A stretch of DNA of 64,000 bases, taken from Lachnospiraceae bacterium (GTDB lineage Bacteria > Bacillota > Clostridia > Lachnospirales > Lachnospiraceae). Under the pieces are notes generated by a model. That model was not told the origin of the DNA. It made no database searches and was given only the letters and a program-made list of their open reading frames with translations. Below are positions 29,778-53,900 of the stretch, piece after piece. Both the position numbers and the translations under genes were made by a program. The stretch is from assembly GCA_017479935.1 (NCBI GenBank), contig JAFVBO010000124.1, positions 2,922 to 66,921 on the forward strand. The letters are read 5' to 3'. Position 1 is the first letter of the stretch. Each line of letters begins with the position of its first letter.

Positions 29778-29882
29778 AAAACCATTTGCGCTCCGCCTAA
29801 GGACATGATATAGTTAAGCTGAGTCCACAAAGGACGAGACGATACAGCGCACATGCGCACAGGAAAAGAAGGAGGAGCCGGT

Positions 29883-35631: not shown

Positions 35632-35648
35632 ATTTTCTGAAGGGGAAA

Positions 35649-35745: not shown

Positions 35746-36139
35746 TTTTTTCATTCAGTTCCTTCTCTATCTTCCCCAAGGTTCTAAAAAACCTATAGGT
35801 AGCAACCGCAGGGCCCATCAGAAGCAAGCCAAACACATTCCAGCCGAACATATGCCACCAGGATGTATGCGGCCCTGGGATGCCCATTGCTTCCGCTTTC
35901 ACTTTCAATTCTTCGGAAATGCGTGCCATCCACACGAGCGTATAGATGAACAAGGTTGGAATGCCAAGAAGGTACGCTTTCCAGTACGGCATTACCTTGT
36001 GCCCCAGGACCGACTCAATCTCGTCCTGTAAACCACGGCGCATATAAACGAGAAAGAACAAGCCCGCCGTGAAAAAATCGATAAGCCCCAGCAAAAAGCC
36101 AGGGCGATTGGTGTTTTTATACTTCATGTTTTCCATCAT
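35741..36139 (-). CDS. small membrane protein (DUF4234-like)
   Basis: 132 aa with 3-4 TM segments and 'LIDFFTAGLFFLVYMRR'. The family assignment is tentative. Confidence 0.5.
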   Translation of the reverse strand: MMENMKYKNTNRPGFLLGLIDFFTAGLFFLVYMRRGLQDEIESVLGHKVMPYWKAYLLGIPTLFIYTLVWMARISEELKVKAEAMGIPGPHTSWWHMFGWNVFGLLLMGPAVATYRFFRTLGKIEKELNEKS

Positions 36140-36160
36140 TCCATTGCTTTCGAAATTGAA

Positions 36161-36187
36161 GCTGACAAGGGTCGGTTCTCTGTCAGC
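36161..36187. repeat. degenerate palindromic repeat unit H
   Basis: GCTGACAAGGGTCGGTTCTCTGTCAGC keeps the GCTGACA/TGTCAGC termini. Compared with cluster B the loop has 3 substitutions. Confidence 0.6.
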
Positions 36188-36193
36188 TCCCTC

Positions 36194-36610
36194 TTATCCC
36201 AGCACCATCAGCAGCGTCCCCGCTCCAATCATGATGCAACCAATCAGGCTCTTCACTGAAAAATCCTCATGAAGGAACACAAAGGCCAATACCAGCGTGA
36301 TAATCACACTCAGCTTGTCAATCGGCACCACCTTAGAGGCATCTCCCATCTGGAGCGCCTTATAGTAACAAAGCCAGGAGGCTCCTGTCGCCAATCCGGA
36401 CAGAATCAGGAAAATCCAGCTTTTGGGGCTGATATCTTTCAAGCCGTTCTGTGCGTTTGTCAAAAATACCATGCCCCAGGCCATGGCTACCACAACCATG
36501 GTACGGATTGCGGTCGCCAGATTGGAATTCACGCCCTCAATGCCAATCTTGGCGAGAATAGATGTCAAGGCTGCGAACACCGCGGACCCTAACGCAAACC
36601 AGAACCACAT
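36194..36610 (-). CDS. EamA-like (DMT superfamily) small transporter
   Basis: ATG at 36610, then 'MWFWFALGSAVFAALTSILAKIG', 4-5 TM segments, and a single EamA domain length. Confidence 0.7.
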   Translation of the reverse strand: MWFWFALGSAVFAALTSILAKIGIEGVNSNLATAIRTMVVVAMAWGMVFLTNAQNGLKDISPKSWIFLILSGLATGASWLCYYKALQMGDASKVVPIDKLSVIITLVLAFVFLHEDFSVKSLIGCIMIGAGTLLMVLG

Positions 36611-36921
36611 ACTGCGCCTCCTCAAGTTTCCTTTGATAAAAATATTGTTTTTGTCAACTGATAAACTTCATCAAAATAATCATCAATTAAGTTCAGTCAA
36701 ATCAAGGATATTATACTACCCACTCCGCTCAGCGTCAACCTTCACATCCCTATTTGATGCGGCCTTTGTCATCCATTCGCAAATAAATATTTACTTTTGA
36801 ATATTATCGTGCTAAAATGTATAAAAATACACAGTCATTCCGTGCAGAATTCCACGCACCGGCATGAATCGTTACGCACATTTCACTTTGGGCACAATGC
36901 TTACTCAGAAAGGAGGCACCT

Positions 36922-39015
36922 ATGGTTGGCTTTACAGCAATCCTATTCACTGGTATCGGCGCGCTTCTCGCCCTTGCCTTTTCACTTTGGAAATATTTCA
37001 GCGTTCAAAAACAGCCGGAGGGCACCCCGGAAATGGCCCGGATTTCGCGGTCCATTTCCGAGGGTGCAAATGCCTATCTGAAGAGGCAGTACGGAGGCGT
37101 CGGTCTTTTTATGGCTGTCGTCTTTCTCCTCATGGCTTTTCTGGCTGTTGGGGGAATGCTCACCTGGTTCACGCCGTTTGCCTTCATTACCGGCGCGTTC
37201 TTTTCAGGCCTGTCCGGATTTATTGGGATGAAAACCGCCACCATGGCAAACTGCCGCACGGCCAATGCCGCTTCGAAGAGTCTGAACGGAGGGCTGCGGG
37301 TTGCGTTCGATGCCGGTTCCGTCATGGGGTTCACCGTTGTCGGGCTCGGACTTCTGGATCTGACGCTATGGTATTTTCTTTTGAATAATGTCTTTCACCT
37401 GGAGCTAAATGAAATCACCGCTAATATGCTTACCTTCGGGATGGGCGCTTCCTCCATGGCTCTGTTTGCCCGCGTGGGCGGTGGGATCTTCACAAAAGCG
37501 GCCGATGTGGGAGCCGATCTTGTTGGTAAAGTCGAAGCCGGCATCCCGGAAGATGATCCCCGCAATCCAGCGGTTATCGCCGATAACGTAGGGGATAACG
37601 TGGGTGATGTAGCCGGTATGGGAGCCGATCTGTACGAATCGTACGTCGGTTCCATTATATCCACCGCCGCCTTAGGGGTAGCCGCCGGCTACGGTGAAAA
37701 CGGCGTCGCCCTTCCGCTTCTTCTGGCCGCCCTGGGCGTGGTGGCCTCCATCGCTGGCACCTTTTTCGTCAAAACAAAAGAAAGCGCTTCCCAGAAGAAT
37801 CTTCTGAAAGCGCTGCGCACCGGAACCTATATTTCCGCTGGTCTGGTTCTTCTCATTGCCTTGATCGCCGTACGATTGCTTTTGCCATCCCACTCAGGAA
37901 TTTACTGGTCTATCCTCTCCGGTCTGATTGCGGGTGTTCTGATCGGTGCCATTACTGAATACTATACTTCAGACAGCTATAAACCCACACAACATCTGGC
38001 GGACTCCTCGCAGACAGGCGCGTCCACCATCGTGATCAACGGCCTGTCGCTGGGAATGCTCTCCACGCTGGGGCCTGTCATCGTTGTCTGTGCGGCAGTT
38101 CTCATCGCCTTTTACTGCGCCCGCGGCGCTGATGGCAACTTCTATCAGGGATTGTATGGCATCGGGATCTCCGCGGTAGGTATGCTTTCTACACTTGGCA
38201 TTACACTGGCAACGGACGCCTATGGTCCGATCGCCGATAATGCGGGCGGCATTGCGGAGATGACCGGTCTGCCGCCGGAAGTGCGCGAACGGACCGACGC
38301 CTTGGATTCCCTTGGCAATACCACCGCCGCCACGGGAAAGGGCTTTGCCATCGGTTCCGCGGCGCTGACAGCGCTGGCCTTAATGGTTTCTTACATCAAC
38401 AAGGTGGAGACCATCTCCGCTGCCAGCCAAAGCACTTTTGTGTTCAACCTGTCCCTCACCAACCCTTCTGTACTGGTCGGATTGTTCATCGGAGGCGTGC
38501 TTCCGTTTCTGTTCGCCGCCCTCACAATGTCTGCCGTCGGCAAAGCCGCCCAGGCCATCGTCATGGAAGTGCGCCGCCAGTTCCATGAAATCACGGGCCT
38601 CCTGGAAGGCCAGGCGGAACCGGATTACCGCACCTGCGTGGACATGTGCACCAGATCCGCCCAGAAGCTGATGATCGCGCCTACGCTGATCGCCATGATC
38701 ATTCCGGTTCTTGTCGGCCTGATCCTTGGGCCCGACGCGGTGGTGGCCCTCCTTGCCGGCAATACGGTCACCGGCTTTGTGCTCGCCATCATGATGAGCA
38801 ACGCCGGCGGCGCCTGGGACAATGCCAAGAAATATATCGAAGCCGGTCATTTAGGCGGCAAAGGTTCGGACAATCATAAAGCTGCCGTCGTGGGTGATAC
38901 CGTCGGTGATCCTTTTAAGGACACCTCCGGGCCGTCCATCAACATCCTGATTAAGCTCTGTTCAACGGTTTCCATTGTATTTGCCGGGTTGACTGTGGCG
39001 ATACATATTTTGTGA
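36922..39015 (+). CDS. hppA: membrane-bound proton/sodium-translocating pyrophosphatase
   Basis: 697 aa with the hallmark H+-PPase motifs 'GGGIFTKAADVGADLVGKVE', 'DNVGDNVGD' and 'GDTVGDPFKDTSGPS'. Confidence 0.95.
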   Translation: MVGFTAILFTGIGALLALAFSLWKYFSVQKQPEGTPEMARISRSISEGANAYLKRQYGGVGLFMAVVFLLMAFLAVGGMLTWFTPFAFITGAFFSGLSGFIGMKTATMANCRTANAASKSLNGGLRVAFDAGSVMGFTVVGLGLLDLTLWYFLLNNVFHLELNEITANMLTFGMGASSMALFARVGGGIFTKAADVGADLVGKVEAGIPEDDPRNPAVIADNVGDNVGDVAGMGADLYESYVGSIISTAALGVAAGYGENGVALPLLLAALGVVASIAGTFFVKTKESASQKNLLKALRTGTYISAGLVLLIALIAVRLLLPSHSGIYWSILSGLIAGVLIGAITEYYTSDSYKPTQHLADSSQTGASTIVINGLSLGMLSTLGPVIVVCAAVLIAFYCARGADGNFYQGLYGIGISAVGMLSTLGITLATDAYGPIADNAGGIAEMTGLPPEVRERTDALDSLGNTTAATGKGFAIGSAALTALALMVSYINKVETISAASQSTFVFNLSLTNPSVLVGLFIGGVLPFLFAALTMSAVGKAAQAIVMEVRRQFHEITGLLEGQAEPDYRTCVDMCTRSAQKLMIAPTLIAMIIPVLVGLILGPDAVVALLAGNTVTGFVLAIMMSNAGGAWDNAKKYIEAGHLGGKGSDNHKAAVVGDTVGDPFKDTSGPSINILIKLCSTVSIVFAGLTVAIHIL

Positions 39016-39033
39016 TACAAATATAAAAAAGTT

Positions 39034-39056
39034 GAAGGGGACGGTTCTGTGTCAGC
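39034..39056. repeat. palindromic repeat, partial single unit G
   Basis: GAAGGGGACGGTTCTGTGTCAGC + TTTTTT lies between the hppA stop and the P-type ATPase stop. Confidence 0.75.
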
Positions 39057-39060
39057 TTTT

Positions 39061-41145
39061 TTATGTCTGCGGCAGCAGCGGCGTCAGGCAGTCCATGCTT
39101 AAGAGAAGCGTAGAGCCGTTGTGCAGAAGAGCGGACATTGCCGGCGACAACAGTCCGAAAGCGCCGAGGGCGATCAGGCTTCCGTTGAAGCCCATCACAA
39201 AGCGGTAATTCCTGTCGATACGCTTCATCAGTCTCTCGGATAGTCTCCGCAGCAGCACCAGCTCCCGCAGATCCTCCGCGGCGATCGTGATGTCCGCCAC
39301 CTCACGGGCAACGCTGGCTCCGCTTCCGATCGCGATTCCCACATCCGCCAACGACAGGGCAGGCGCGTCGTTGATGCCATCACCGATCATGGCGATAGTC
39401 TGTCCCCGTCCTTGTGCCTCGCGAATGAAAGCAGCCTTGTCTTCGGGCAGTACCTCCGCACAAAACTCATCGATCCCGAGCTCTCTCGCGATGGCGGCCG
39501 CCGTATTACGGTTGTCCCCGGTGAGCATGACGATATGGCCGACGCCGGCCTCATGCAGAAGCTCCACCATCTCCTTCGCCTCCGGGCGCAGCGGATCATA
39601 GATTCCAATGGCTGCTGAGAGGACGCCACCGATCGCCAGATAAAGCCATGAGCGGTCCGATGTCAGCGCATCGAATGCCCTCTTATCTTCGGGCAGTACG
39701 GTCGCCCCTTCATCCTCAAAGACAAAATGACGGCTGCCGATGACAACGCGCTCCTCCCCGATCCGTGAGGCGATCCCATGAGCCACCACGTACTCCACTT
39801 CCCGGTGCATCTCCTGGTGATCAAGGCCCCGTTCCTTCGCAGCCCTGACCACGGCATTCGCCACGGAATGGGGAAAATGTTCCTCCAGGCAGGCGGCGAC
39901 CCGCAGCATCTCCCTCTCGTTCTGGCCGTGGAAGGCCACCACATCACACACCGTAGGGCAGGCGTTCGTAAGCGTACCCGTCTTATCAAAAACAACCGTA
40001 TCCGTCTGGCTTAAGATCTCCATGTACTTGCCGCCCTTGACCGTGATCCTGTGTCTGCCGGCTTCCCGCATGGCGGACAGAACGCTTAAGGGCATGGAAA
40101 GCTTCAGCGCGCAGGAAAAGTCCACCATCAACACCGAAACCGCCCTTGACGCATTACCGGTCAGGAGCCAGGTAAGAAGGCTTCCGCCAAGACACCAGGG
40201 AACCAGTTTGTCCGCCAGCGTGTACGCGTGTCTCTCGGTGCCGGACTTCAGGCGTTCCGATTCCTCAATCATCCGTACAATGCGGTCATAGCGGTTTTCA
40301 CCGGCGGCATGCGTCACGCGAACCACACAGTTTCCCTCCTCCACGACCGAGCCTGCGAAAACAGCCGAGCCCGTGCGCTTCGCAACCGGAACGGATTCGC
40401 CGGTAAGGGAGGCCTGATTGACCATCACCTCACCCTGATCCAGGATCCCATCCAACGGCAGCACGTGCCCGGTATGAACCACAATCCTGTCTCCGGCCTC
40501 AATGCTTGTAAGCGGTACCAGTGCCTGCTTCCCGTCTTCCTCAAGCCGCCAGACCTGATCCACATGCAGGGACATGCTCTTCGCCAGATCGTCCACCGAC
40601 TTCTTGTGTGTCCACTCATCCAGCGTATCGCCGAGTCCTAAAAGAAAGCGCACCGATCCGGCGGTCGAATAGTCGCCGGTCAGGAGAGAGGCGCCAAGGG
40701 CAACACCGTCCAGAACCTCCACGGTAAGCTTCCTCTGCGCCAATGTTTTCGCAGCCAGCCACAGGCGGGGAATAGCGCGCAGAGTATTGATCATCCTGCG
40801 CACCGGCACAGGAAGAAACAGCCTCTTTGCGCAGTGCCCCAGCACCTGGAAAACCATTTTTTCCTTATACTCCCGGTTGATACGGCGACTGTTTACGCTA
40901 AGCACATGCGCCTCTTTCCTTGCTTCCTCATAGGAAAAGCGCGACAGCTGTCGATAAAGGGAAGCCCGGTCCCCGTGAAACAGAATGATCAGGTTTCCCA
41001 GCCTCTCGTGTACGGTCACCTGATCAACACCGGGAAGGGCCAGGATCCAGGCCTCAAGAAGATCCGCCTGTTCCATGCTTATGGAACGCTGTGCTGCTTT
41101 CAGGCGCACCCGCCCTGTGCTTTCATGAAGAATCTGAAACCTCAT
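39061..41145 (-). CDS. P1B-type (heavy-metal-like) P-type ATPase with SCA transmembrane motif
   Basis: 'DKTGTLT', 'TGDN' and 'GDGINDAP' are present. TM6 reads 'FSCALKLS' instead of CPC. The N-terminal domain lacks CxxC. Confidence 0.85.
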   Translation of the reverse strand: MRFQILHESTGRVRLKAAQRSISMEQADLLEAWILALPGVDQVTVHERLGNLIILFHGDRASLYRQLSRFSYEEARKEAHVLSVNSRRINREYKEKMVFQVLGHCAKRLFLPVPVRRMINTLRAIPRLWLAAKTLAQRKLTVEVLDGVALGASLLTGDYSTAGSVRFLLGLGDTLDEWTHKKSVDDLAKSMSLHVDQVWRLEEDGKQALVPLTSIEAGDRIVVHTGHVLPLDGILDQGEVMVNQASLTGESVPVAKRTGSAVFAGSVVEEGNCVVRVTHAAGENRYDRIVRMIEESERLKSGTERHAYTLADKLVPWCLGGSLLTWLLTGNASRAVSVLMVDFSCALKLSMPLSVLSAMREAGRHRITVKGGKYMEILSQTDTVVFDKTGTLTNACPTVCDVVAFHGQNEREMLRVAACLEEHFPHSVANAVVRAAKERGLDHQEMHREVEYVVAHGIASRIGEERVVIGSRHFVFEDEGATVLPEDKRAFDALTSDRSWLYLAIGGVLSAAIGIYDPLRPEAKEMVELLHEAGVGHIVMLTGDNRNTAAAIARELGIDEFCAEVLPEDKAAFIREAQGRGQTIAMIGDGINDAPALSLADVGIAIGSGASVAREVADITIAAEDLRELVLLRRLSERLMKRIDRNYRFVMGFNGSLIALGAFGLLSPAMSALLHNGSTLLLSMDCLTPLLPQT

Positions 41146-41414
41146 GCCTGTTCGCCATCTTCGATAAACGCAGCCTCTTCTTCCGCTTTCTTTGCGGTCC
41201 TTGCTTCGTTGATCGCCTTTGCGTCAGCCAGAATGTCCGAGCAGTTCTCCTGTACATTCTCTACATCTCGCATGATCTCGTCCTTGCAGCGAAGCACAGC
41301 CGCCGTGACATGCGTATAAACCTTGCGTGCGTCCTCACTGCCGAGCAGTTTAAGGCCAGCAGAGCCAAAAAGTGTTCCTCCGACAAATAATGCAATCTTT
41401 CCTACTGGAATCAT
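41142..41414 (-). CDS. small protein (DUF6110-like), translationally coupled to the ATPase
   Basis: GGAGGACAGGAAGG RBS plus ATG at 41414. It has one N-terminal hydrophobic segment and an acidic C-terminus. Its stop overlaps the ATPase ATG (ATGA). Confidence 0.6.
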   Translation of the reverse strand: MIPVGKIALFVGGTLFGSAGLKLLGSEDARKVYTHVTAAVLRCKDEIMRDVENVQENCSDILADAKAINEARTAKKAEEEAAFIEDGEQA

Positions 41415-41620
41415 CCTTCCTGTCCTCCTTTTTCCCGGCTTATGCCGGATTGATTTTCTTCCCGTTCTTCCTCGGGGATCGTCTTCACGCGAAAAACGAA
41501 ATAAAAAAAGTGACAGACCCATACGATGGCCAGGATCATGCAGGGAATCCAGATTCCTTTCCGTGCCATCATGAAGAAACCAAAGCCCATCAGAAGCGTG
41601 ACAGTGGCAATGATCGACAT
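41411..41620 (-). CDS. small 2-TM membrane protein
   Basis: 69 aa (MSIIATVTLLMGFGFFMMARKGIWIPCMILAIVWVCHFFYF...). Its stop overlaps the next start (ATGA). Confidence 0.5.
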   Translation of the reverse strand: MSIIATVTLLMGFGFFMMARKGIWIPCMILAIVWVCHFFYFVFRVKTIPEEEREENQSGISREKGGQEG

Positions 41621-41745
41621 CTTCGTCTGTTTGCCACTATTTGTTAGAATAAGCTAACCATTCAGGTAAAAAAAAGAGCCGGAATAAGTTATGCGCTTCT
41701 AACCGGCTCATATTATAGAACACTTTCCTCACAAATGCAAGAAAA

Positions 41746-41771
41746 TCTGACACCGAACCATCTCCTGTCGG
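41746..41771. repeat. degenerate palindromic repeat unit I
   Basis: TCTGACACCGAACCATCTCCTGTCGG resembles TCTGACACAGAACCGTCCCCTGTCAG with about 4 changes. It lies 3' of the STAND gene. Confidence 0.5.
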
Positions 41772-41849
41772 TTAGATCCTGGCCGGATCATACTGTGCTT
41801 CCTCAAGATTCATTTACAATCTTCCCTATCATTTTATCCACCTGTCAAC

Positions 41850-44800
41850 TTACACCTGTATGATCACCTGGTTTTTTAACATCCCCTCCTTGTGATACAG
41901 GTAGCTTGTGGTAATCAAGTCTCCTTCTGCCCCTGGCATTATCCGCGCCTGATAGGTAACAATGCCGTTTGCGTGCGGTCCATAGAGCCCGGTATTAAAA
42001 CCGTTTTTTGTTATGAAATCTTTCATGCGGAGTCCGTTGGGATTCGCTCCGTTCCACAATACGGTAGATCCTTCCACATAAGCCAGCTTCTCCGGCAGAA
42101 TATCTTTGAAAACCACACTTTCTATGTCTCGGCTTCCGGTATTTCTGAATTCTGTTCGAAAATATACGGTATCTCCAGGAGCAGCCTTTAACGGTCCATG
42201 TGTATAAACTTTTCCATCCAAAGATGCCTGTCTGTTCAGGTTGCAGCGCAGACAGGTAGTCCGCACCCGGAAAATAATATACCCTTGGTAGTCTTCGCCG
42301 GCGGGAAGGCGGCCATCCAGCTTGTTGACACCGATATAATGCCCTTTTTTGAATAAATCCGTGGACAGCTTCATCCCGTTCGTATTCCCCGCGTTATGAA
42401 TCTCGGCACTGGCGTTCACATACTTCAGGTCCAAGGGAAGTTCCTCTGTCTTACAGAGCAGGGAGGACCAGATCCATCCAGTCTGCATGCAGGAGAGTCC
42501 ACATACAATCTGTCCGCTTTTCTGAGGCCATATGTCCTGATTGGGAAGGACAGCAACGATCTTTACGTAATCTGCGATGCCCTTTCCGCTCGGGTTTGTA
42601 GCGGGATCTGCGGCGTTGTGATAATGGATCAGAACCTCGTACTCGCTCTGGTCTTTGAGGGTAATCTCCTGCTGCCAGTTTTTCTCTCCCACCAGGCGAA
42701 TGCGGGCAAAGCTGCGTTCGTCGCCCCAGCCCTTTAAGTCGCTCCTGCAGTTAAAGGCAACGGAGGGCGGGTAGGTTCCTGCCTGATAAGCCGCTCTTTC
42801 CGGTCCCCATGCCGTCTTCGGGAAGGCCTGAAATTTCAGGATGATATGGCCGGAGCCATCCGGAGGCACGATGCCATCCAGGGCATCTGTTCCGATCCGG
42901 GTTCCTCCTTTTTTAAAAAGCGATAGCGGCAAAGCAATCGGCGGCTGCCCTTTTTTCCTGTTGCTGTAAAGCATGGCAGAGCCCTGCACATACCGCAGCA
43001 TTAACGGGGTATCACTCCAGACAAACGCATTGCCCCAGACTTCTTTTGTTTCGGTGTTCTCCGCAGAAAGCAGAACGGATACTTTCTTTAACTCAAGGCG
43101 ATCCATTTCCTCCGGCAGAACGACTTGCGCCTTAGCTCCGCGGATCTCGCCGCTCTCCTTTTTTACACAGGCATTGTCAAACAAAATATATAATTCATAG
43201 GTTTCAAACGGATGCAATTTTCGAATACCTTCATACGTTTCGTGTATTCCTTCCTTGGCCACGCGTACGAATGCCCTTTCATCCCCGAAAATGTTGTTGT
43301 CCGTGATGGAATTAAACTCCGGGACGGGGGATGGGCTTTTCATGGTATAGGTAGGACGCACCGGACCCCAGCCGCCTCCTCTGATACCCTTCACCCGATC
43401 GTAGAATTCCTGATTTTTCCGCTCGGTTTCCTCCAGGATTTCCTTGCCTGAACTATCCTGCTTCCTTAAGTCCTCCAGGTCCTTTCTGACCCGCAGAACT
43501 TCACTCAGACCGGCATTCTTCGGGAGCGTGTACATCCTTGCCTGCACTTCTCGCACCTTCTGCACGAGATCGGCAAAACGTGCTTCCCGGGAATACGCAA
43601 GGATGACCTCCCGCACGCTTTGGTGGATGTAATAGCGTTCCTCCTTGTCCTTTCGAATGATGGTATGCTGCAGAAATTCCTGGTAATCACTGATCCGGAA
43701 GTGATTTCCCAGCACCTCCGGGAGGATCGTTTCCGCATCCTTTTTTGACCATTTATCCAGCAGCGCCAGCACGACGGCGATCTCCTGATCGTCCTTTCCC
43801 ATGTAGCGGACAAAGCGGCCAATCACATCACCCGGATTTAAGCCGATCTCTTCCGGTCTTATGATCTTCCCATCCGTTGCCTGTTCATAGTAGGTGTCCA
43901 CGCAAAGATCCAGGAAAAGCGGAACGCCGCCGGAGACCTGAATGATATGGCTTCGAAGAGCAACCGGTATGCCCGCTTTTTCCAGGAAAAAGGCGGCATC
44001 TTCCGCGGAAAACTCCTCCAGGCTGCACTCCTCCATCTCCTGATACGCTTCGTCGCTCTCTTTCCAGCCCAGCTTTTCCCGGCCGCTGATGACCCAGAAA
44101 ACTCCCGGGATACGCTTGATGATATCGCTCTTCAGCCATTCCTCCTCTGACGGGGTGTAGCCGGTATCCGCATAGCGGTTCGTGCAGCTTTCGAACGTGT
44201 CCAGGAAAATCACCAACGGGCAGGCGATTCCCATCTTTTTCAGATTCTGCGCACTCCGGCACAGGTCCTGTCGGAAGTATTCAGGCATAAACTGGCGGAT
44301 CCGCTCCGGGTCCGACTCCGCCCAGATCCGGGTCAGTTCTTTTTCTAATTCCTTCTTCTCCGGATCCCAGAGAGCGCGCAGTTTTTCCTTATAATCCAAA
44401 AGCGTCTGCCAAACCATCTTCCCGGTTCTTAAGGTACTGACCACCGCATCCGCCGCCGGGAGGATCGTCGATAAAATGTCCAGTACCGGATGGTCTAACA
44501 CATCCTGCTCTCCCATCTCCTGAAAGACCGGAAATCCACTCTTTTCCCGATAAGCCAGCTCCGCAGCCGATGTCAGCGGAAACAGCAGGCCCTTTTTTTC
44601 AAGCTGCCGGTATAAGCGAGTAATCACCTGATAAAAGTCTGCAGAATTGTTCTCATAGTCATAGGTAGCATAGATATACTTTTTCTGACTGTCCGCCTCC
44701 AGAATGGATTTGCACTCCTGCAGCAGGCGGGATTTTCCGCTCCCCGCGATGCCGTAGACAGACATCGCAAAGAATTCATCCGGCGCCTGCTGCGCCTGAT

Positions 44801-44897
44801 CCAGAATCTGTTGAAACAAAGCGCGTTCCTTGCGCCGGTCTGTAAAGGTTTTCCGATCCGCGACGGATACCTTCCTCTCTATCTGCATAACTTTCAT
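41850..44897 (-). CDS. STAND-class (NB-ARC/AAA_16-like) NTPase with C-terminal triple beta-sandwich-like region
   Basis: Walker A 'GIAGSGKS', Walker B 'LVIFLDTFE' and an NB-ARC-like 'SGGVPLFLDL' motif. The C-terminal 500 aa contain two paralogous repeats of about 185 aa ('WGP.R..Y....P....FN......GDER.F.R...') and a DUF11-like domain. Confidence 0.8.
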   Translation of the reverse strand: MKVMQIERKVSVADRKTFTDRRKERALFQQILDQAQQAPDEFFAMSVYGIAGSGKSRLLQECKSILEADSQKKYIYATYDYENNSADFYQVITRLYRQLEKKGLLFPLTSAAELAYREKSGFPVFQEMGEQDVLDHPVLDILSTILPAADAVVSTLRTGKMVWQTLLDYKEKLRALWDPEKKELEKELTRIWAESDPERIRQFMPEYFRQDLCRSAQNLKKMGIACPLVIFLDTFESCTNRYADTGYTPSEEEWLKSDIIKRIPGVFWVISGREKLGWKESDEAYQEMEECSLEEFSAEDAAFFLEKAGIPVALRSHIIQVSGGVPLFLDLCVDTYYEQATDGKIIRPEEIGLNPGDVIGRFVRYMGKDDQEIAVVLALLDKWSKKDAETILPEVLGNHFRISDYQEFLQHTIIRKDKEERYYIHQSVREVILAYSREARFADLVQKVREVQARMYTLPKNAGLSEVLRVRKDLEDLRKQDSSGKEILEETERKNQEFYDRVKGIRGGGWGPVRPTYTMKSPSPVPEFNSITDNNIFGDERAFVRVAKEGIHETYEGIRKLHPFETYELYILFDNACVKKESGEIRGAKAQVVLPEEMDRLELKKVSVLLSAENTETKEVWGNAFVWSDTPLMLRYVQGSAMLYSNRKKGQPPIALPLSLFKKGGTRIGTDALDGIVPPDGSGHIILKFQAFPKTAWGPERAAYQAGTYPPSVAFNCRSDLKGWGDERSFARIRLVGEKNWQQEITLKDQSEYEVLIHYHNAADPATNPSGKGIADYVKIVAVLPNQDIWPQKSGQIVCGLSCMQTGWIWSSLLCKTEELPLDLKYVNASAEIHNAGNTNGMKLSTDLFKKGHYIGVNKLDGRLPAGEDYQGYIIFRVRTTCLRCNLNRQASLDGKVYTHGPLKAAPGDTVYFRTEFRNTGSRDIESVVFKDILPEKLAYVEGSTVLWNGANPNGLRMKDFITKNGFNTGLYGPHANGIVTYQARIMPGAEGDLITTSYLYHKEGMLKNQVIIQV

Positions 44898-45008
44898 GAT
44901 GTCACTCCTTCCGCATTGGTGCCTGTCTCCATGAAGAGAAAATGAAAGTCATGCATTTGTTCTGGCTTCATGGTTTTTCATCTCTCTCCTTCCATTGACC
45001 CATTCATA

Positions 45009-45230
45009 TCACTTGGTACTCATCTTCTGCTCAAATGCTGTCTCTGTGATACCTGCGCGTTTGGCTGCATCCTTAACAGAAAAGGATGCCATCCTTGACC
45101 AGTGAAATAAGTGTATCTATGATACCCTCGGCACGTCCTTCTCTTCTCCCATCTTCTGAAAAAGAGTACCACAAAACGGCTACCCTTTCAACCACCTTCA
45201 TGCGGAAAAAATCCCCCTGGTTCTAGCCGG
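45009..45230 (-). pseudogene. internally deleted copy of the Rpn-family gene (5' leader fused to 3' end)
   Basis: 45009-45150 aligns with 56696-56846, the 3' end of the intact gene. 45150-45230 aligns with 57586-57660, its upstream leader. The junction is at the shared CATCTTCT. There is also a 1-nt indel in the coding remnant. Confidence 0.75.
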
Positions 45231-45338: not shown

Positions 45339-45998
45339 TCATTCTGCAAAATAGCGAAATACGACCTCATAATCCGGCGCGCTCGCATTGCAGTCTGAAT
45401 AAGAGCGCATTTCAACAACATTCCCGTTTTCGTCCTTGACAAGCTCATTGCGATACATATAGTTGGGGTTCGTCTGACAGCCCGCCACGACCAGTTCCGA
45501 ATCCGGATCATATATAGCGATGCTCATACTCTCAAAGTTCTCGCCATTCGGATCGCTTTCTACTCTTTCCATAATGAGACGGTGTTCTGAATCATACAGC
45601 CTGTAATATTTCTTCTTCAGCTCATCCCCTTTGTAAAATAAGACAATATCCGCATTGTCTTTTTCGTTATGCGTGTACTTGCGATATCCCGTCATTTCAC
45701 CATTCGTAAAGTTGCGGACCATCTTCAGCTTGCCTTGGTCATCGTACTCGTACAGGCTGTATCGTTTAGTCTCGCCTTCCGCATCCGTTTCTGTCACGTC
45801 AATTCTTAACACTTTTCCTGCATCATCTCTTATATACAGATCTTCGCTTTTATAAGGATATACACCTCTCATATCCGTCCACTGACGTACAATTTGCCCT
45901 CGCTCATTATACTCTGATATGATATAAAACCCCTCTTTCTTGGCAGCAAAACCCTTCTGCATTTCTTCCACACGCTTATAGCCACCTTTGACCCTCAT
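45339..45998 (-). CDS. hypothetical cytoplasmic protein with YD/MORN-like repeats
   Basis: 219 aa with the repeated pattern 'Y.YD..G.L...' (YNERGQIVRQW, YEYDDQGKLKMV, YDSEHRLIMERV, KDENGNVVEMRSY). It resembles YwqK-type immunity/antitoxin proteins. No signal peptide. Confidence 0.5.
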   Translation of the reverse strand: MRVKGGYKRVEEMQKGFAAKKEGFYIISEYNERGQIVRQWTDMRGVYPYKSEDLYIRDDAGKVLRIDVTETDAEGETKRYSLYEYDDQGKLKMVRNFTNGEMTGYRKYTHNEKDNADIVLFYKGDELKKKYYRLYDSEHRLIMERVESDPNGENFESMSIAIYDPDSELVVAGCQTNPNYMYRNELVKDENGNVVEMRSYSDCNASAPDYEVVFRYFAE

Positions 45999-46107
45999 GC
46001 CAATTCCTCCTCAATCAAAATGTTTGTCTTTTAGGAAAAAACTGATGCGTTCATTATAGCAGGTCGTGTATAAAAAGGAATCAACCATTAGTTAAAAGCT
46101 TACTATG

Positions 46108-46196
46108 TCATTTGATACTCATCTGCTGCTCAAATGCCGTCTATGTGATACCTGCACGTTTTGCTGCATCCTTAATAGAGAGGATTCCATCCTTGT
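46108..46196 (-). pseudogene. 3'-end remnant of an Rpn-family gene
   Basis: About 90 nt are roughly 85% identical by eye to 56696-56785, encoding ..GILSIKDAAKRAGIT... Confidence 0.7.
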
Positions 46197-47189: not shown

Positions 47190-50117
47190 CTATTTATTCT
47201 TCTTATCGGACAGATTCTTGCAGAACAGGATAAGCGCTGCGGCAGTCAACAGTCCGATCACCGCATCCAGTGCGATAATAGCAGTCTTCCACCAAGGCGT
47301 TTCATCGCTTACCACGATGGTTTCCTCTGAAATCAGCCCGTTGATCAGCGTGGAGTTGACGTAATTATAGTAATAGCGATGGTTCACCTCGCGGAGCACC
47401 TCATACAGATACGTATCGTTGTTGTCCACCACCAGGCTGTTCATGGTGTTGGTTCTTCTGGCCAGGCAGAACATGCTGGTTCCGGCGATCAGCGAATCCG
47501 CTGTGGGGGTTCTGTCATTCTCCGCGCCCGACGAGTCGGTGATCAGGACGCCATTAAAGCCCCATTCTCCCATCATGATACCGCGGATCAGTGTCTGCGC
47601 CACCGGGCTCATCTTCACACCGATACGGTTCATGGCCAGCATCGAACCACGAGCGCCGCCTTCGGTAAACGCAAGTTCAAAAGCCTTTAATCCGCTTTCG
47701 CGAGCTGTCTGTTCTGTCATGAACGTGCATACACCGGAACGATTCTGTTCCTGATCATTCGCAAAGAAATGCTTCGGCCCTGCGATAACGCCTTTCGCGT
47801 TCATACCTGCCACTTCTGCCGCATTCATGATACCAGTAAACAAGCCATCTTCGGAAGAATACTCAAAGTTACGGCCACCGTAAGGCGTACGGTGAATATC
47901 CAGGCCGGGAGCAAACGCCATCTGACCTCTCGCATAAATGCAATCCTCACCGTAGAAGGATCCCAGCGTGCTCATCACGTCCGTGCTCCAGCTGCTTGCC
48001 GCCAGGTTCTGGATACAATAACAGGTAGGAGAATCCTGTTCCCCATAGCGATATGCCATACCATAACCGTCCGGGCCATCCGCGTTCTTGTTGGCTGGCT
48101 TTGCCACTGTCTGGATCGCACCCTGGCCTAAGGTATCGGAGATGATTGTGGACATATCCATTACGGAAAGCTGATCAAGGAAAGAATCCCACTTTTCATC
48201 ATCATATTCCACACCGTACATATCGGCAAAGGTAATCAACTCATCTCCGACCACACCGTTTATCTGCGCATCCGTCAGGCTGTCCGTGTTGGATTGAACG
48301 TAAATGCGGCTGACCTGCGCCTTCTTGATGGCGTCGTTCATTTCCAGCGCGGCTCCCTGCGGATAAGTGCCTTCCCAGTCGGAGCGGGACAGGTACGTCA
48401 CCACGTCATTCTCATAGAAATCATTTACGTTGATGGCATAATCGCCGGTAAACTGATTGGTCACCGCGTTTCCTGTCACGGCGGAGGATGCGTAGCTGGT
48501 TGTATCCAGCGCAGCCACCTCATACACGCCAACCTTTTCGGCGTCTCCGACTACGGCTGTTCCGTCGATATCAAACAAACCGGTTGCGCCTTTCTTCGCG
48601 AGAATGTTGTTTAACGCGTCGTGCGCATTGTCGCCTAAACCAAAGTAATAGGTTCCGGCATCCAGGATGTAAGTTTTCGCGTTCTTCCAGTCATAAGAAG
48701 CCGTGTAATAACGGTTGATCCGGATTTCCAGCGTTTCGGAGGCACCAGGAGCCAAAAGACCGGTCTTTCCAAATCCGACGATCTGTACGGCTGCCTTCTC
48801 AATGCTGTTTTCCTTATCGTACTCGGTGTAAGGGCTCTGCAGATAGATCTGCGCGACCGACTTGCCGGAGTAGGTATCGCCGGTATTGGTCACCGTCACC
48901 TTCGCCACGAATTCATCAGCATCCGCGTCATAGGTAAAGCTGTCAAGCGTCTGCGAGAAGGTGGTATAGCTTAAGCCGTAACCAAACGGATAGCTGATCT
49001 CTTCCGCATAGTTCCAGTTTCCGGAAGATGCGTAGGTGCCGGCCTTTCCGTTCGCGTTGCCCTGGCCTAAAATGCAGTCTTCATAACGGGTTTCGTAGTA
49101 CTTATATCCTACATAAATGCCTTCCTGGTAAACCAGGTAGGTGTTGCTCGCGGCGCCTTCGGTATCACCGGAGAAGGTGAAACCACCCCAGTTTGCCATG
49201 GCGGGGGAGGAAAGAGAATTGACCGCGTACGTGTCCACCAGATGACCAGAAGGAGACGCCGTGCCCTTTAACAGGTTGGCCACACCGGTAAAGCCATAAC
49301 GACCGGGCTCACCGATCCACATGCAGGCGTTTACGCCGTACTCTTCTTCCTCGATCCAAGAGAGCTCCATCGCGTTGCCGGAGTTGATCAGAACGATCAC
49401 CTTGGTAAAACCTTCCTCCTGAATCATCTTCAAAAGGTCCTTCTCTTCCTGATGCAGTGCCAGTTGCGGAAGTCCATCGGCATCCTCGGTATCAAAATCC
49501 TGGCCTTCGCCGGAATCGCGCGAGAGCAACACGATCGCCGCGTCCTTATAGCCGTCAAAGCTGGCCTTTAAGGCGTCGGTATAGAAAGCAGCATTTTCCT
49601 CGCCGATTTTGGATTTGACCGTCGTCTGGTTTCCTTTTACGCGTGCCGTGGAGCTGGACGCATAAGCATTATACAGGGTTTCGTTGATGGAATAGCCCGC
49701 TTCTTCCAGGGCCGCCTTCAGGCTGACCGCCGTTTCGGCCGATACGATACCGCCGCCGGCATGGGACTTGTAGATGGGGTCCGCGCTGGCCCGGCCAAAC
49801 AGGGTGATGTTCTTCACATCTGCCGAAAGGGGCAAAGTGCCGTCGTTCTTAAACAGCACCGAGCCTTCTTCCATTTCACGAATGGCAAAAGCGATTTCAT
49901 CCGCTACCAGTTTTGCCAGATTTTCATCCGAAAGGGGACCGTACGCGCTCTCGTATACCATTTCCTCCGACATACCGCTAACCGAGCCGGATTCAATCCC
50001 TAAAACCGCGTTGATGGAACCGTCATTTTCAAAGGCGACGGAGCTCATAAACAAAAGCAGGGTCAGAACTAGCGCCAGACCAGCCGTTATGCCGCGCCAG
50101 AATACCGATTTTTTCAT
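47190..50117 (-). CDS. glycoside hydrolase family 3 protein, domain-permuted, N-terminal signal anchor and C-terminal TM anchor (GH3-1)
   Basis: The GH3 C-terminal/Fn3-like signatures come first ('VLFKNDGTLPL', 'SVAQIYLQSPY...VGFGKT.LLAPGASETLEI'). The TIM-barrel signatures come last ('GPKHFFANDQEQNR', 'WGFNGVLITDS'). The tail is 'WWKTAIIALDAVIGLLTAAALILF'. ATG at 50117 after GGAGG. Confidence 0.85.
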   Translation of the reverse strand: MKKSVFWRGITAGLALVLTLLLFMSSVAFENDGSINAVLGIESGSVSGMSEEMVYESAYGPLSDENLAKLVADEIAFAIREMEEGSVLFKNDGTLPLSADVKNITLFGRASADPIYKSHAGGGIVSAETAVSLKAALEEAGYSINETLYNAYASSSTARVKGNQTTVKSKIGEENAAFYTDALKASFDGYKDAAIVLLSRDSGEGQDFDTEDADGLPQLALHQEEKDLLKMIQEEGFTKVIVLINSGNAMELSWIEEEEYGVNACMWIGEPGRYGFTGVANLLKGTASPSGHLVDTYAVNSLSSPAMANWGGFTFSGDTEGAASNTYLVYQEGIYVGYKYYETRYEDCILGQGNANGKAGTYASSGNWNYAEEISYPFGYGLSYTTFSQTLDSFTYDADADEFVAKVTVTNTGDTYSGKSVAQIYLQSPYTEYDKENSIEKAAVQIVGFGKTGLLAPGASETLEIRINRYYTASYDWKNAKTYILDAGTYYFGLGDNAHDALNNILAKKGATGLFDIDGTAVVGDAEKVGVYEVAALDTTSYASSAVTGNAVTNQFTGDYAINVNDFYENDVVTYLSRSDWEGTYPQGAALEMNDAIKKAQVSRIYVQSNTDSLTDAQINGVVGDELITFADMYGVEYDDEKWDSFLDQLSVMDMSTIISDTLGQGAIQTVAKPANKNADGPDGYGMAYRYGEQDSPTCYCIQNLAASSWSTDVMSTLGSFYGEDCIYARGQMAFAPGLDIHRTPYGGRNFEYSSEDGLFTGIMNAAEVAGMNAKGVIAGPKHFFANDQEQNRSGVCTFMTEQTARESGLKAFELAFTEGGARGSMLAMNRIGVKMSPVAQTLIRGIMMGEWGFNGVLITDSSGAENDRTPTADSLIAGTSMFCLARRTNTMNSLVVDNNDTYLYEVLREVNHRYYYNYVNSTLINGLISEETIVVSDETPWWKTAIIALDAVIGLLTAAALILFCKNLSDKKNK

Positions 50118-50142
50118 ATTCAATCTGCCTCCTTCCGTGATT

Positions 50143-50934
50143 TTACTGTTTCAGCGTGCCATCCGGCGCGGTGCGGTTAGAGCTGGAAAGGCTTCCGCTG
50201 GCCAGATACGCGTAGCTGGAATACTGAACTGTGTTTTCATAGTCCAGGTTGCATACAACTGATGTATTTAAGGACTGTCCCTTCTCCGTGATGTTGAAGA
50301 AGAACTGGATGACGTTGGTGAGGGAGTCCGTATAGGCGACCGGTTCTGTGGAAACCGTATACTTCTTGTACTGGATCATGTCGCCGTCAGCTGAATAGTC
50401 AAAAGAATTCTGAACATAAATCGTCAACTCTCCATCCGCTTCTTCCCAGTAACCATAGTACAGCTCTACCACTTTTGTTTTACTGTTGAACTCGTCCTCT
50501 TCCGGTGTCTCACCCGCCAGATAGTCAAACATGCTGGGGATCAGGAACGTTCCAAGCCATCCCTTGATGGAACCGTCCTCATACAGATTCATCACGTAGG
50601 CAAAGTAATTTGCCAGACCATTATTGTGGTCATCCGCCGGATAGCTGACAAACTGATAGGCCACCGGCTTTTCCGCCCAGTAATCATAGTAATCGGTCGC
50701 TTCCGGATCCAGCGTCTCCCCTTCTTTTAAGAACAAGGTGTGATAGTTCACATGATCTGCCGGTATTTCCATATCCGCATACAAAGAATGATACTCAGGA
50801 TAAATCATATCCGCCCATTCCTTCTGGTCCGTCTGCTCCTGGACTTCCGAGGAATTGCCGTCACCGCAGCCAGCTAAACTACTGATACCAAGCACCAGGG
50901 CCATCAGGCCCGCTAACAGTTTTCCTTTTCTCAT
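50143..50934 (-). CDS. lipoprotein, unknown function
   Basis: ATG at 50934 overlaps the GH3-2 stop (ATGA). The N-terminus is MRKGKLLAGLMALVLGISSLAGC|GDG (lipobox). Confidence 0.7.
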   Translation of the reverse strand: MRKGKLLAGLMALVLGISSLAGCGDGNSSEVQEQTDQKEWADMIYPEYHSLYADMEIPADHVNYHTLFLKEGETLDPEATDYYDYWAEKPVAYQFVSYPADDHNNGLANYFAYVMNLYEDGSIKGWLGTFLIPSMFDYLAGETPEEDEFNSKTKVVELYYGYWEEADGELTIYVQNSFDYSADGDMIQYKKYTVSTEPVAYTDSLTNVIQFFFNITEKGQSLNTSVVCNLDYENTVQYSSYAYLASGSLSSSNRTAPDGTLKQ

Positions 50935-53900
50935 AATTCTTTCTCCTTCCCTTCCTTCACAGTGAAATATACATACAAGAACGTCGGGATCAGAGCAGCA
51001 AGACCGATCGCAATGACGATAAACCGGATCGATTTCTCCCACCAGGCCTGTACGTGGACCAACTCCACGTTCTTGGATGTTCCATTCATGGCATTGCTGT
51101 TCACGTAGGTGTACAGGATTCGGTGCGCAGCCTGACGAAGTGCTGCGTGAAGAACCGGATCTTCTTCCAGTTTCGCTTCTTCAAAGAAACCGCCATACAG
51201 CGTCGCGTCAGTCGTATCAAAGTAATCCGTACCGGCCTTTACTGCTTCTGGCGCATGGTAATAGGTGAGAAGTGCAACCGCCATATCGGTGATGGCGCAG
51301 CCTTCAAAGCCCCATTCATTGCGGAGAATCTGCGTCATGACCGGATAAGACTCTCCCACCCAGGTGCAGCCGATACGGCTGAAGGACTCCATCACGCCCA
51401 TGGATTTCGTCTTGCCTTCTTCTTTGGCAAGAATTCCCTCAAAGGCCCGCAAAGACAGCTCTCTGGCTTCCTGCTCCGTCATAAAGATGGATCCGCCATA
51501 GCGGTTGGTCTCCTGATCGTTAAAAGCAAAGTGCTTGGTGAAAGCCACGCCGCCCTTGGAGGCGTATCCTTCGCTGACCGCCGCGCCCATGATGCAGGCA
51601 ATCATCGGCTCCTCGCCGTAATACTCTCCGTTTCGTCCGGAGAATGCGTTTCTTCCAAGATTAGCCGCGGAAATGCCCCACAAGCCCGTACGTCCCAGAA
51701 GAATGCTCTCATTTCCCATCAGCTCGCCACGCTCATACTCTAACTCTCTGTTAAACGAGGCTGCACAGACCAATGTGCCTTCGTAGCAGCGAGAAGCAAT
51801 CGCGCCTTCCGTTGTCTCGCCCTTCCAGTTGGTATAGCCCGTATAGCCGTTGTACCACTTGTCGCCGTCATACTGCAAAACAGCCGAATACCAGCCGATC
51901 GGACCATCGCCGTCCTTGGATCCGGGGTAACTGATGGACGTGCTGGCATAAGTGAAGCCGTTGCCTGCTGCCACAATCTTTGCCATATCGTCCGCGGACA
52001 TCTGGTCCAGGATCATGTCCCAGGCCTCATCATTATAATCGGCGCCCATCATCATGGACACCTGGTACTCTGTCCCAGCCCCATTCGTGATGCCAAAGGC
52101 AGCTTCCACATCCAGGCTTCCTGCCGAATAATCCTTTCCGTTCACACTTGTCTGGCCGATCATTTCCTTCAGCATTGCTTCCGTTGCTGTCAGCTTGCTG
52201 CTGGTGCGACCGTTTCCTTCGCCTTCCACGATGGTCGGGAACGTATTCCAGTCATTTCTGGTTACGTAGGTAACCTTCTCACCCTCAGACAGCCAGTAGT
52301 TGATATCGGCATCCTGAAGCTGATTGGTGATCGTCTCTCCCGTGTAGCGAGAGATGGAATAGGTTGTTTCGTCACGGGAAGACTGGTTAAACGACCACAC
52401 CTTCGCGGCATCGCCTTCCGCATCCATCTTCTCTTTGTTTACAGACACGCCGTCCTGTGCCTTCTTCGCCAGCACGTTGTTTAACGCGTCATGTGCGCCG
52501 TTTCCGAGTGCAAAATAATGTTTTCCCTCTGAAAGGATATAACCGCCTTCACCATTGTTCGCCTTGGAATCCCAACTGACAATGTCATACAAGCTCACCG
52601 TGATAGAAAGCGTCTCGCTCTCTCCGGGTGCCAGATTCTTCGTCTTTTCAAAGCCCGCCAGCTGGATCGCCGACTTCTCGCAGCCGTTTTCGATATCCGC
52701 CTGTGTATACGGCGTGGACGCATAAATCTGAACCACGTCCTTCCCGGCCACATCTCCTTTGTTTGTCACCTTTACCTGAAAGGTGTAGCTTTTCTCTTCT
52801 TCATTCCATGTAGGTTCGCCCACCAGCTCCTGGTCAAATTCGGTGTAGGAAAGGCCATAACCAAAGGTATATGCCACCTCTTCCCCATAATTCCAAAGGC
52901 CTGTGGAGGCAAATACGCCCGCTTCGGATTCCGCGTTGCCCTGACCTAAGACAACATCCTCGTACCGGGTTTCATAGTACCGATATCCTACGTAAATACT
53001 TTCCTTCTGAGAGACATACCAGATGGCCCGGAAGGGGTTTTCGCTGCCAACCGTATAGCCAGCTTCATTGGCCGCGAAATAAGCCTCCACTTCTTCCGCA
53101 TTCGCGTATGCCACACTTCCCATATCCTGTGCAGAAGGGGAAGACAGGGAATGCTCGGACCACAAATCGATCAGCTTCGCGGAAGGGTTGACCGCACCCG
53201 TCAGGACATCCACCACACCGTCAATTCCGTTGTAGCCAAGGCCGCCCACCTGGATCACCGCATCAATCTTCTCGTCGTTCTGAACGCCAGCCAGACCAAT
53301 CTGATGGTTCGTGTTCAGCATCAGGATCACTTTGCCAAACCCAGCGTTCTCGGCCATTTCAATCAGAGCCTTTTCACTCTCCGTCAATTCCAGAGAAGAT
53401 ACCCCATAAACCGCTTCGCTTGTGCCTGTCTGACCGCTTCCTGTATCATAGATCGGCTGATCCGCCTCACCAGACCAAAGGTCAAATCCTTCGCCGCAGT
53501 TCCGGCGCAGCACGATGATGGCTACATCGTTGTACTCTGCCATGGACGCCTTCGCCTCCGCAGAAATATTGTCAGGATGAACTTCGCCGATGATCAGATC
53601 GCCCACCAGGCCATAGTAACCAGCAGGGTTATTCTGGTTCACACCGCTGTTCGCATAGAAATTGTACATCGTCATGTTGACGTCAAATCCGGCTTCGGAA
53701 AGTGCCTGGTCAAAATGCTTGCAGAACGAGTTAGCATTTGCCACCTGGCCCGCTCCTGCATCCATGCCGTAGACCAGATCGGCTGATGCCTGCCCAAGAA
53801 GCGTAATCTTTGTCTTTGTTCCATCTTTTTCCGCCGCGATCGGGAGTGCTGCGTTCTCGTTCTTTAACAGCACCGTTCCCTCTCCCACCGCCTTGCGGAT

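Follow-up and report, generated by a model that had tools for sequence, protein, structure and literature searches.

A STAND NTPase with adhesin-related beta-sandwich domains in the predicted sensor position

What might a STAND NTPase do that has neither an effector domain ahead of its ATPase nor the usual repeats behind it? The question is raised by a gene in a 64,000-nucleotide (nt) stretch of a Lachnospiraceae bacterium genome (assembly GCA_017479935.1, contig JAFVBO010000124.1, positions 2,922 to 66,921), called the window here. Its product (P0001) represents a cluster formed at 100% identity and has 10 strain variants. A first-pass annotation, made from the sequence alone, had described a stand-alone STAND NTPase without an N-terminal effector, whose C-terminal half was two paralogous repeats and a DUF11-like domain, not TPR, WD40 or LRR. 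Our searches and models bear out this architecture. We propose, with a probability of roughly 0.5, that the protein is a cytoplasmic, ligand-gated STAND (NB-ARC-like) switch with a beta-sandwich sensor derived from adhesins and an unlinked output, most likely with a role in conflict between organisms or immunity. The parts of the gene are listed below; invariance refers to three family alignments of NTPase relatives, namely A2, A3 (the 8 closest relatives) and A8 (16 wider relatives).

41850..44897, minus strand: STAND gene, a complete open reading frame (ORF) of 1015 amino acids plus stop codon, with an ATG start (from the ORF list and its translation)
43533..44897, minus strand: NB-ARC-like STAND NTPase module, residues 1-455 (from a sub-threshold AAA_16 match, invariant motifs and profile relatives)
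44730..44753, minus strand: Walker A, GIAGSGKS, residues 49-56 (G49, G52, G54 and K55 invariant)
44190..44216, minus strand: Walker B, LVIFLDTFE, residues 228-236 (D233 and E236 invariant)
43911..43931, minus strand: GxP motif, GGVPLFL, residues 323-329 (P326 invariant in A2, A3 and A8, G324 in A8)
43383..43532, minus strand: charged linker between NTPase module and beta-sandwich array, residues 456-505 (from alignment A2)
42816..43382, minus strand: WGP domain 1, a beta-sandwich, residues 506-694 (from paralogy with WGP domain 2; AlphaFold2 (AF2) pLDDT about 95)
42243..42815, minus strand: WGP domain 2, a beta-sandwich, residues 695-885 (from an AF2 model of the domain alone and homology to surface and TIR proteins)
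41853..42242, minus strand: DUF11/CLIPPER-type, CnaA-like beta-sandwich, residues 886-1015 (from TIGR01451, AF2 and column counts)

The N-terminal module has the features of the STAND superfamily as reportedly defined by Leipe et al. in 2004: a Walker A of the form GxxxxGK[ST], a Walker B of the form hhhhD with a further acidic residue, an arginine and a GxP motif. Residues 1-455 comprise an FTDR motif, a P-loop core, a helical domain with GxP and a winged-helix region with His425. The Walker residues listed above are invariant in all three alignments, and R273, within WVISGREKL, is invariant in A3 and A8; its position after the strand that follows Walker B suggests a sensor 1 or RNBS-B-like arginine. 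H425 (YYIHQSV) is invariant in the 8 closest relatives and is Y, N, L or C in some of the 16 wider ones. Pfam matches were all sub-threshold: AAA_16 covered residues 21-236 from model position 5 (E = 8e-6), followed by NPHP3_N (0.079), nSTAND6 (0.092) and NACHT (0.14). Searches of PDB sequences with NTPase profiles gave matches at the P-loop level only, the best for the 16-sequence profile being a plant NB-ARC protein (9h2l, E = 7e-4, P-loop region only). The FTDR lead-in, Arg273, GxP and His425 fit an NB-ARC-like STAND module. The TPR, WD40 or LRR repeats that typically, and not obligatorily, follow the NTPase in this superfamily are absent here according to both Pfam and AF2. Instead, the module is followed by the linker at residues 456-505, which its composition suggests is helical and which shows zero amino-acid variation among nine strain variants.

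No effector was found ahead of the NTPase by Pfam, NCBIfam or PADLOC. The NTPase profile match begins at residue ~18-21 and, since AAA_16 aligns with residue 21 as early as its model position 5, no domain precedes it. The missing effector, part of what the first-pass annotation had put forward as a new variant, is general in an NTPase clade that numbers several thousand clusters. When the N-terminal 455 residues were made into a profile and searched exhaustively with HMMER, 4369 clusters matched at E ≤ 1e-3, of which 907 passed E ≤ 1e-30. Among the best 150 representatives nearly all matches begin in the first ~20 residues (a few begin at up to residue ~40 or lie in N-terminally truncated proteins), and the absence of an effector is therefore a trait of the whole clade and not of the window protein alone.

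The members of this clade share with the window protein a homologous N-terminal 450 residues, starting at about residue 1-20 and bearing FTDR, Walker A and B, GRE and GxP, and differ from it in how they end. TPR_12 was found in 38 of 49 sampled members and TPR_10 in 33, with NPHP3_N matches in 23 and NB-ARC matches in 14 (the best at 3e-5). WGP domains, in contrast, occur in only 3 of the 150 best representatives (P0003, P0005 and P0055, three clusters at 50% identity); P0055 has 902 residues and the order NTPase, WGP, WGP. The WGP-bearing subclade is thus a rare branch that has exchanged the TPR sensor for WGP domains. Word-indexed searches returned very few full-length relatives, namely P0002 (60% identity, 1013 residues) and P0003 (52%, 1007 residues). 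They also returned a short form of ~705 residues with one WGP domain and no CLIPPER (P0004 to P0006; P0004 is from a Solobacterium sp. metagenome-assembled genome (MAG)), as well as P0007 and P0008, which combine this NTPase with TPR repeats behind it. A scan of the JGI metagenomes with the STAND family alignment found no relatives. Next to one TPR-type relative (P0052; locus L035, 5269-9346), the gene for a 576-residue protein without family match ends 1 nt before the start of the NTPase gene; it is a possible operon partner, not seen in other contexts.

The C-terminal half is a triple beta-sandwich. The two WGP domains are true paralogs (BLASTP, 29% identity over 188 columns, E = 1e-15), and WGP1 is the sole C-terminal domain kept in the 705-residue short forms. 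An AF2 model of residues 505-1015, based on a 46-sequence alignment, was all-beta with three sandwich domains (mean pLDDT 95.5), and WGP2 modelled alone reached a pLDDT of 96.5 and a pTM of 0.92. The third domain matched NCBIfam TIGR01451 (DUF11) with 38.7 bits against a cutoff of 24 (residues 904-945); with Pfam PF01345 it scored 17.4 bits, below the cutoff of 24.6 that homologs P0009 to P0039 pass. DUF11 has been renamed CLIPPER, a CnaA-like, isopeptide-stabilised stalk domain of fibrillar adhesins (PDB 9IFR; PMC12617251).

For the WGP domain there is no Pfam family. Foldseek with WGP2 found no PDB neighbour at E ≤ 1e-3 (the best were RhoGDI-type Ig folds with a template modelling (TM) score of ~0.3) and nothing at this threshold among the BFVD viral models. 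With neither a Pfam family nor a significant PDB or BFVD neighbour, WGP is an undescribed beta-sandwich family. The three-domain model resembled generic multi-Ig adhesin stalks and integrin ectodomains (PrgB, antigen I/II, Cna) at TM ≤ 0.23. A known effector fold in this region, which the first-pass annotation had named as evidence against its own interpretation, was considered and rejected: no nuclease, protease, NADase or pore-former was among the PDB or BFVD neighbours. The array has no hydrophobic or amphipathic segment. The protein also has neither a signal peptide nor an LPxTG motif, its N-terminus being the NTPase, and is predicted to be cytoplasmic.

The array has homologs outside the STAND family. 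We searched with residues 507-1015, collected loci from one-genome-per-species contigs and JGI metagenomes, and then reconstructed their ORFs. The resulting 56 loci included 2 copies of the STAND gene itself (96-97% identity), 7 TIR fusions and ~45 genes of a surface form, and the WGP2 plus CLIPPER unit is 31-44% identical to these surface proteins and TIR fusions (WGP2 by itself 35-45%). The surface form (~430-550 residues) has a signal peptide that ends directly ahead of WGPER/YGPxR, one WGP, at least one DUF11/CLIPPER, an LPxTG motif, a membrane span and a basic tail. By these signals they are sortase-anchored surface proteins, with WGP as the predicted tip and CLIPPER as the predicted stalk. 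Their WGP tip domain and CLIPPER are 35-45% identical to those of the window protein, which in contrast lacks the signal peptide, the LPxTG anchor and the conserved isopeptide Lys/Asn described below. A ~45-residue stretch, YVNASAxIHNAGxTNGMKLSTDLF...GHYIGVNKLDGRLP, is nearly identical between the window protein and surface proteins P0012 and P0020. Surface copies with a named source organism are mostly from Candidatus Saccharibacteria according to the genome collection. No phage-encoded copy was found when IMG/VR viral contigs were scanned with the C-terminal module.

The surface proteins are of interest in their own right. At loci L012 to L070 they share a conserved signal peptide, M-x-KQTNIKFKRRL-x-x-AGLAA..., which stops just ahead of W/Y-G-P-x-R, so that the mature proteins would begin with WGP. 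The family may be a major one among the surface adhesins of rumen and gut Saccharibacteria, so far uncharacterised.

In the TIR form (~456-505 residues), an N-terminal TIR_2 domain (E down to 1e-28) is followed by WGP and CLIPPER (proteins P0040, P0042 and P0044; loci L016, L027, L029, L062, L067, L070 and L071). A Glu of the (W/Y)CxxE type can be read directly in the sequences of these TIR domains. Three of the loci are from named genomes, a Clostridia bacterium, a Bacillota bacterium and a Ruminococcaceae MAG, all of ruminant origin. The rumen Clostridia proteins resemble the window protein in the module (31-36% identical), in a predicted cytoplasmic location, in the loss of Lys and Asn and in being encoded by stand-alone genes (two sit after mnmE); they differ in having an N-terminal TIR instead of the STAND NTPase, and one WGP instead of two. 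PADLOC matched them through the TIR domain only. At L029 (3598-10729, Ruminococcaceae bacterium RUG13477) the TIR-WGP-CLIPPER gene (472 residues) lies amid a cluster of TIR-type genes that looks like a conflict-system island: its mates are a 677-residue TPR_10/12 protein (a scaffold gap interrupts its upstream part), a calcineurin-like metallophosphoesterase and a second TIR_2 protein of 359 residues with an uncharacterised C-terminal domain. At L010 (973-3780), a 91-residue TIR_2 fragment and a 254-residue protein without family match lie directly upstream of the P0042 gene and may be a degraded second TIR fusion.

Surface and cytoplasmic copies of CLIPPER differ at the putative isopeptide site. 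We counted alignment columns in 71 distinct CLIPPER segments (58 surface, 5 STAND and 8 TIR), the Lys and Asn being candidates assigned by alignment and spacing and not by 3D geometry. At the candidate Lys column the surface copies have K (57/58), the STAND copies R (5/5) and the TIR copies Y or R (8/8), and the candidate Asn column holds N in 57/58, T in 5/5, and S or nothing in 8/8, respectively. The acidic residue (Asp) of the site is kept throughout. The pattern is clean: the putative pair appears to be lost in 13/13 cytoplasmic copies and in both cytoplasmic lineages, marking the move of an extracellular module into the cytoplasm. The bond is also missing in some DUF11 domains (PMC12617251).

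Several of these results point to the array as the sensor. Because 38 of 49 relatives carry TPR_12 in its place, the array occupies the canonical sensor position; this position, the sharing of the module with TIR proteins, the absence of an effector-like fold and a precedent in pSlfn5 together suggest that it recognises a ligand. Of these, the sharing with surface proteins and TIR fusions is the main evidence. In pSlfn5, a cytoplasmic beta-sandwich, the C-terminal Ig-like domain, was experimentally shown to sense a phage protein (PMC13056530). Like the array, it has structural matches to integrin ectodomains; pSlfn5 differs from the window protein in its tRNA nuclease effector and the lack of an NTPase, and no sequence relationship to WGP has been shown. 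The use of one sensor on two signalling chassis has been reported for Avs7 and Dsr1 (PMC13581612). Since WGP-CLIPPER is fused to TIR elsewhere, a role in conflict or immunity is the most likely one, and a defence role of the window protein is plausible.

We propose the following sequence of events. Residues 1-455 would act as a nucleotide-binding switch and residues 506-1015 as the ligand-recognition part, with WGP-WGP-CLIPPER in place of TPR. Autoinhibition would end once the beta-sandwich array had bound its ligand, a protein or glycan; nucleotide exchange on the NTPase would then lead to oligomerisation, and the oligomer would either signal in trans to a component not encoded beside the gene or sequester its target.

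This presumed logic of ligand binding followed by oligomerisation is that of the Avs/AVAST systems, which are likewise single large cytoplasmic proteins where a P-loop STAND switch is joined to a large C-terminal part at the sensor position, and for which the Avs7/Dsr1 case parallels the sharing of a sensor with a non-STAND effector (PMC13581612). The kinship with the Avs family suggested by the first-pass annotation did not hold, however. The window protein has no N-terminal nuclease, protease, SIR2 or TIR effector, its sensor is a beta-sandwich and not TPR-like, and it has neither a PADLOC match nor a defence-island context; it is not an Avs member. MalT-type STANDs resemble it in having the NTPase at the extreme N-terminus with no preceding effector, and differ in their C-terminal LuxR-type helix-turn-helix (HTH) output, a domain that Pfam does not find in the window protein. 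A survey of 589 STAND clades lists sensors that are TPR-like (almost all), WD40 or FGE-sulfatase and makes no mention of beta-sandwich sensors (PMC13581612), so Ig-like domains from the adhesin repertoire in the STAND sensor position would add a sensor type. In the literature searched we found no description of the STAND plus WGP-WGP-CLIPPER architecture, of the WGP domain, or of a distribution over adhesin tip, TIR and STAND. The parent NTPase plus TPR clade is large and poorly understood, and a ligand of WGP-CLIPPER, once found, could be tried on two chassis.

The gene is functional and under purifying selection. Its ORF is intact in nine full-length strain variants, and orthologs are found at 60%, 52% and 37% identity. 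Compared with variants that are ~97% identical, the ratio of non-synonymous to synonymous substitution rates (dN/dS) is 0.1-0.3 in the WGP domains, and a comparison with L036 showed zero non-synonymous changes in residues 301-505 of the NTPase part. Among the nine full-length variants, 5.5% of positions vary in the C-terminal half and 3.0% in the N-terminal half (~1.8-fold, p = 0.06). Diversifying selection on the sensor half was therefore rejected in favour of a weak, non-significant excess of variation.

Several observations weigh against the proposed conflict or immunity switch. The beta-sandwich half is somewhat more variable, not hypervariable, and the many polar WGP residues common to surface and cytoplasmic copies fit a conserved ligand or structural site better than an arms-race sensor. 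PADLOC gave the window protein matches at the level of noise only (E ~0.03) and gave none to six clade relatives (P0004, P0049, P0050, P0055, P0058 and P0067); for one relative, P0007, a TPR model matched, and only across the TPR repeats (E 7e-11). The 64-kb window is free of defence genes, integrases and prophage, and a small sample of loci from four lineages (L001-L007 and L072-L075) held no defence genes. An effector domain is missing, and no neighbour is conserved across the four lineages or for three TPR relatives. While gene order in strain variant L072 is as in the window, the P0002 gene has CoA-transferase/LUD genes on one side and a LOG gene on the other. In the P0003/P0211 lineage an HTH transposase-like gene precedes the STAND gene and a BspA-type LRR gene follows it. 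The short form occupies the interval from rsmF to gatCAB in three relatives (72-78% identical), a synteny that looks like vertical inheritance and not like a mobile defence gene. The divergent 195-residue gene beside the short form, the 110-residue gene at L004 and the 219-residue gene in the window gave no family matches and no evident resemblance when their translations were read, with no direct comparison run. Finally, STAND membership itself is assigned from sequence motifs.

These points keep non-immune regulation a serious rival, above all the lack of an effector, of defence neighbours and of any match to defence hidden Markov models together with the synteny of the short form. A regulatory STAND would sense an endogenous molecule, such as an envelope glycopolymer or a peptidoglycan precursor, and steer housekeeping functions through protein-protein contacts, in the manner of MalT and other STAND clades without a defence role. 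The stable rsmF/gatCAB context, the polar WGP residues kept between surface and cytoplasmic copies and the low strain variability all agree with it, and in the published survey 391 of 589 STAND clades were not defence-associated (PMC13581612). Set against this, the protein has no DNA-binding or enzymatic output domain, and the four lineages lie in four unrelated contexts with no conserved operon; a conserved housekeeping or regulatory operon, which the first-pass annotation had named as counterevidence, was thus not found among homolog neighbourhoods. The distribution is very patchy (of the top 150 representatives, three 50%-identity clusters), two or three lineages have remnants of mobile elements immediately upstream of the gene, and the sister architecture bears a TIR domain, which is overwhelmingly linked to immunity and NAD+ depletion. 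On balance we regard regulation as possible and on the unlikely side; if the module proved a generic binding domain of such a regulator, it would be a modest addition to domain-architecture catalogues. The array could also be the output and not the input, with NTP-driven oligomerisation bringing the Ig-like domains together as an assembly that adheres, aggregates or acts on membranes, or as a homotypic scaffold that recruits beta-sandwich proteins. STANDs with an N-terminal NTPase, MalT among them, are known to have a C-terminal output, and the window protein offers no other candidate. Its relatives, however, carry TPR_10/12, the classical STAND sensor, at this position, and the obvious output of the TIR fusions is their TIR domain, so that WGP-CLIPPER would be the input there; the array also shows no structural likeness to pore-formers or enzymes and has no hydrophobic or amphipathic segment. 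We judge an output role improbable, slightly more so than the decoy considered next.

Plant NLR (nucleotide-binding leucine-rich repeat) integrated decoys provide the logic for a further alternative, in which the array copies, inside the cytoplasm, an adhesin or receptor module of cell surfaces, is freed of the isopeptide lock, and traps a foreign protein adapted to the surface version. A phage receptor-binding protein or a factor of a Saccharibacteria-type epibiont would be candidates. The homology of the array to the distal domain of sortase-anchored proteins (35-45% identity) agrees with this, as do the stretch of ~45 residues nearly identical to P0012 and P0020, the presence of the module on two immune-type chassis (STAND and TIR), and the fact that the cytoplasmic copies gave up the isopeptide lock only and kept the remainder. 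It is weakened most by the source of the surface copies: all those with a named organism belong to Candidatus Saccharibacteria and not to the Firmicutes that carry the STAND and TIR forms (most metagenome loci are unassigned); in addition, neither a surface-anchored WGP paralog within the 64-kb window nor a phage-encoded relative in IMG/VR was found. An integrated decoy is therefore a long shot; it would be the first prokaryotic counterpart of the plant NLRs with integrated domains, and could be a first hint of cytoplasmic immunity against episymbionts. A decaying or chimeric gene without function, an artefact or relic, might be suspected from its great rarity and the mobile-element debris nearby, and is effectively refuted by conservation: the ORF is intact in the nine full-length variants, which come from independent samples, the same architecture recurs at 60% and 52% identity in other contexts, dN/dS is below 1, the catalytic motifs are intact and the AF2 models are confident. 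The ligand-gated switch with a role in conflict remains the reading that we favour.

Two further features flank the STAND gene:

44905..44912, minus strand: ribosome-binding site GGAAGGAG, 7 nt 5' of the ATG, read directly in the sequence
41668..41709, minus strand: terminator-like hairpin GAGCCGG-N20-CCGGCTC followed by T8, 141 nt past the stop codon of the STAND gene

The gene had been called monocistronic. The intergenic gaps of 441 nt upstream and 327 nt downstream and the hairpin with T8 141 nt past the stop codon are consistent with this, which makes the claim plausible and not proven. That it stands alone is borne out by the lack of a conserved partner in four independent contexts. The consensus scan did not list the hairpin because its loop exceeds 8 nt; it probably terminates the STAND gene. 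A promoter-like TTGCAT-17-TATAAT (41735-41740 and 41712-41717, minus strand) leads directly into the hairpin (region 41668-41740) and probably serves the operon of a small ORF, DUF6110 and a P-type ATPase downstream. An Rfam scan of window positions 36-50 kb gave no match, and neither did a megablast comparison of the locus with E. coli genomes, so the window is not enterobacterial.

The gene is surrounded by 30 kb of ordinary transport, metabolic and regulatory genes, so that the island-like context suggested earlier is weak and no defence island is present. Downstream lie the DUF6110/P-type ATPase operon and an H+-pyrophosphatase; upstream are the 219-residue gene, two small membrane proteins and two GH3 glycosidases; and farther genes encode a sigma factor, an EamA transporter, a cyclase and a LytTR two-component system. 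The 219-residue gene (45339-45998, minus strand) had been called a YD/MORN-like immunity-type neighbour, of which a marginal RHS_repeat match is all that we recovered. It is flanked by a 75-nt direct repeat (45006-45080 and 46105-46179, 88% identical), each copy of which encodes, on the minus strand, the tail '...KDAAKRAGITETAFEQ...' of a frameshifted gene remnant. The remnant looks like an Rpn/YhgA-type C-terminal tail; its naming as Rpn debris in the first-pass annotation was confirmed by no library.

The downstream side is arranged differently in one MAG contig (L011, CAMNLO010000135.1) that is 95-97% identical to window positions 29704-43095. Here, the 3' end of the STAND gene is joined directly to position ~36659, without the 5.2-kb H+-pyrophosphatase, P-type ATPase and DUF6110 block, and a segment of ~3 kb (32747-35726, with the sigma factor and a 524-residue gene) is missing as well. 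A ~65-nt element (window 30692-30756) is present three times in this contig. The differences reflect either strain-level rearrangement or misassembly of the MAG.

Two further loci in the window have unusual domain arrangements. The GH3 glycosidases are tandem proteins of ~1000 residues (47190-50123 and 50931-54128, minus strand) with an inverted domain order, both having Glyco_hydro_3_C and an Fn3-like domain ahead of the Glyco_hydro_3 N-terminal catalytic domain, and a 299-residue protein without Pfam match is encoded between them. On the other side of the STAND gene, a 1305-residue protein (25680-29597, minus strand) combines a weak PI-PLC X-domain match with a Listeria-Bacteroides repeat and is probably a secreted or surface phospholipase-like protein.

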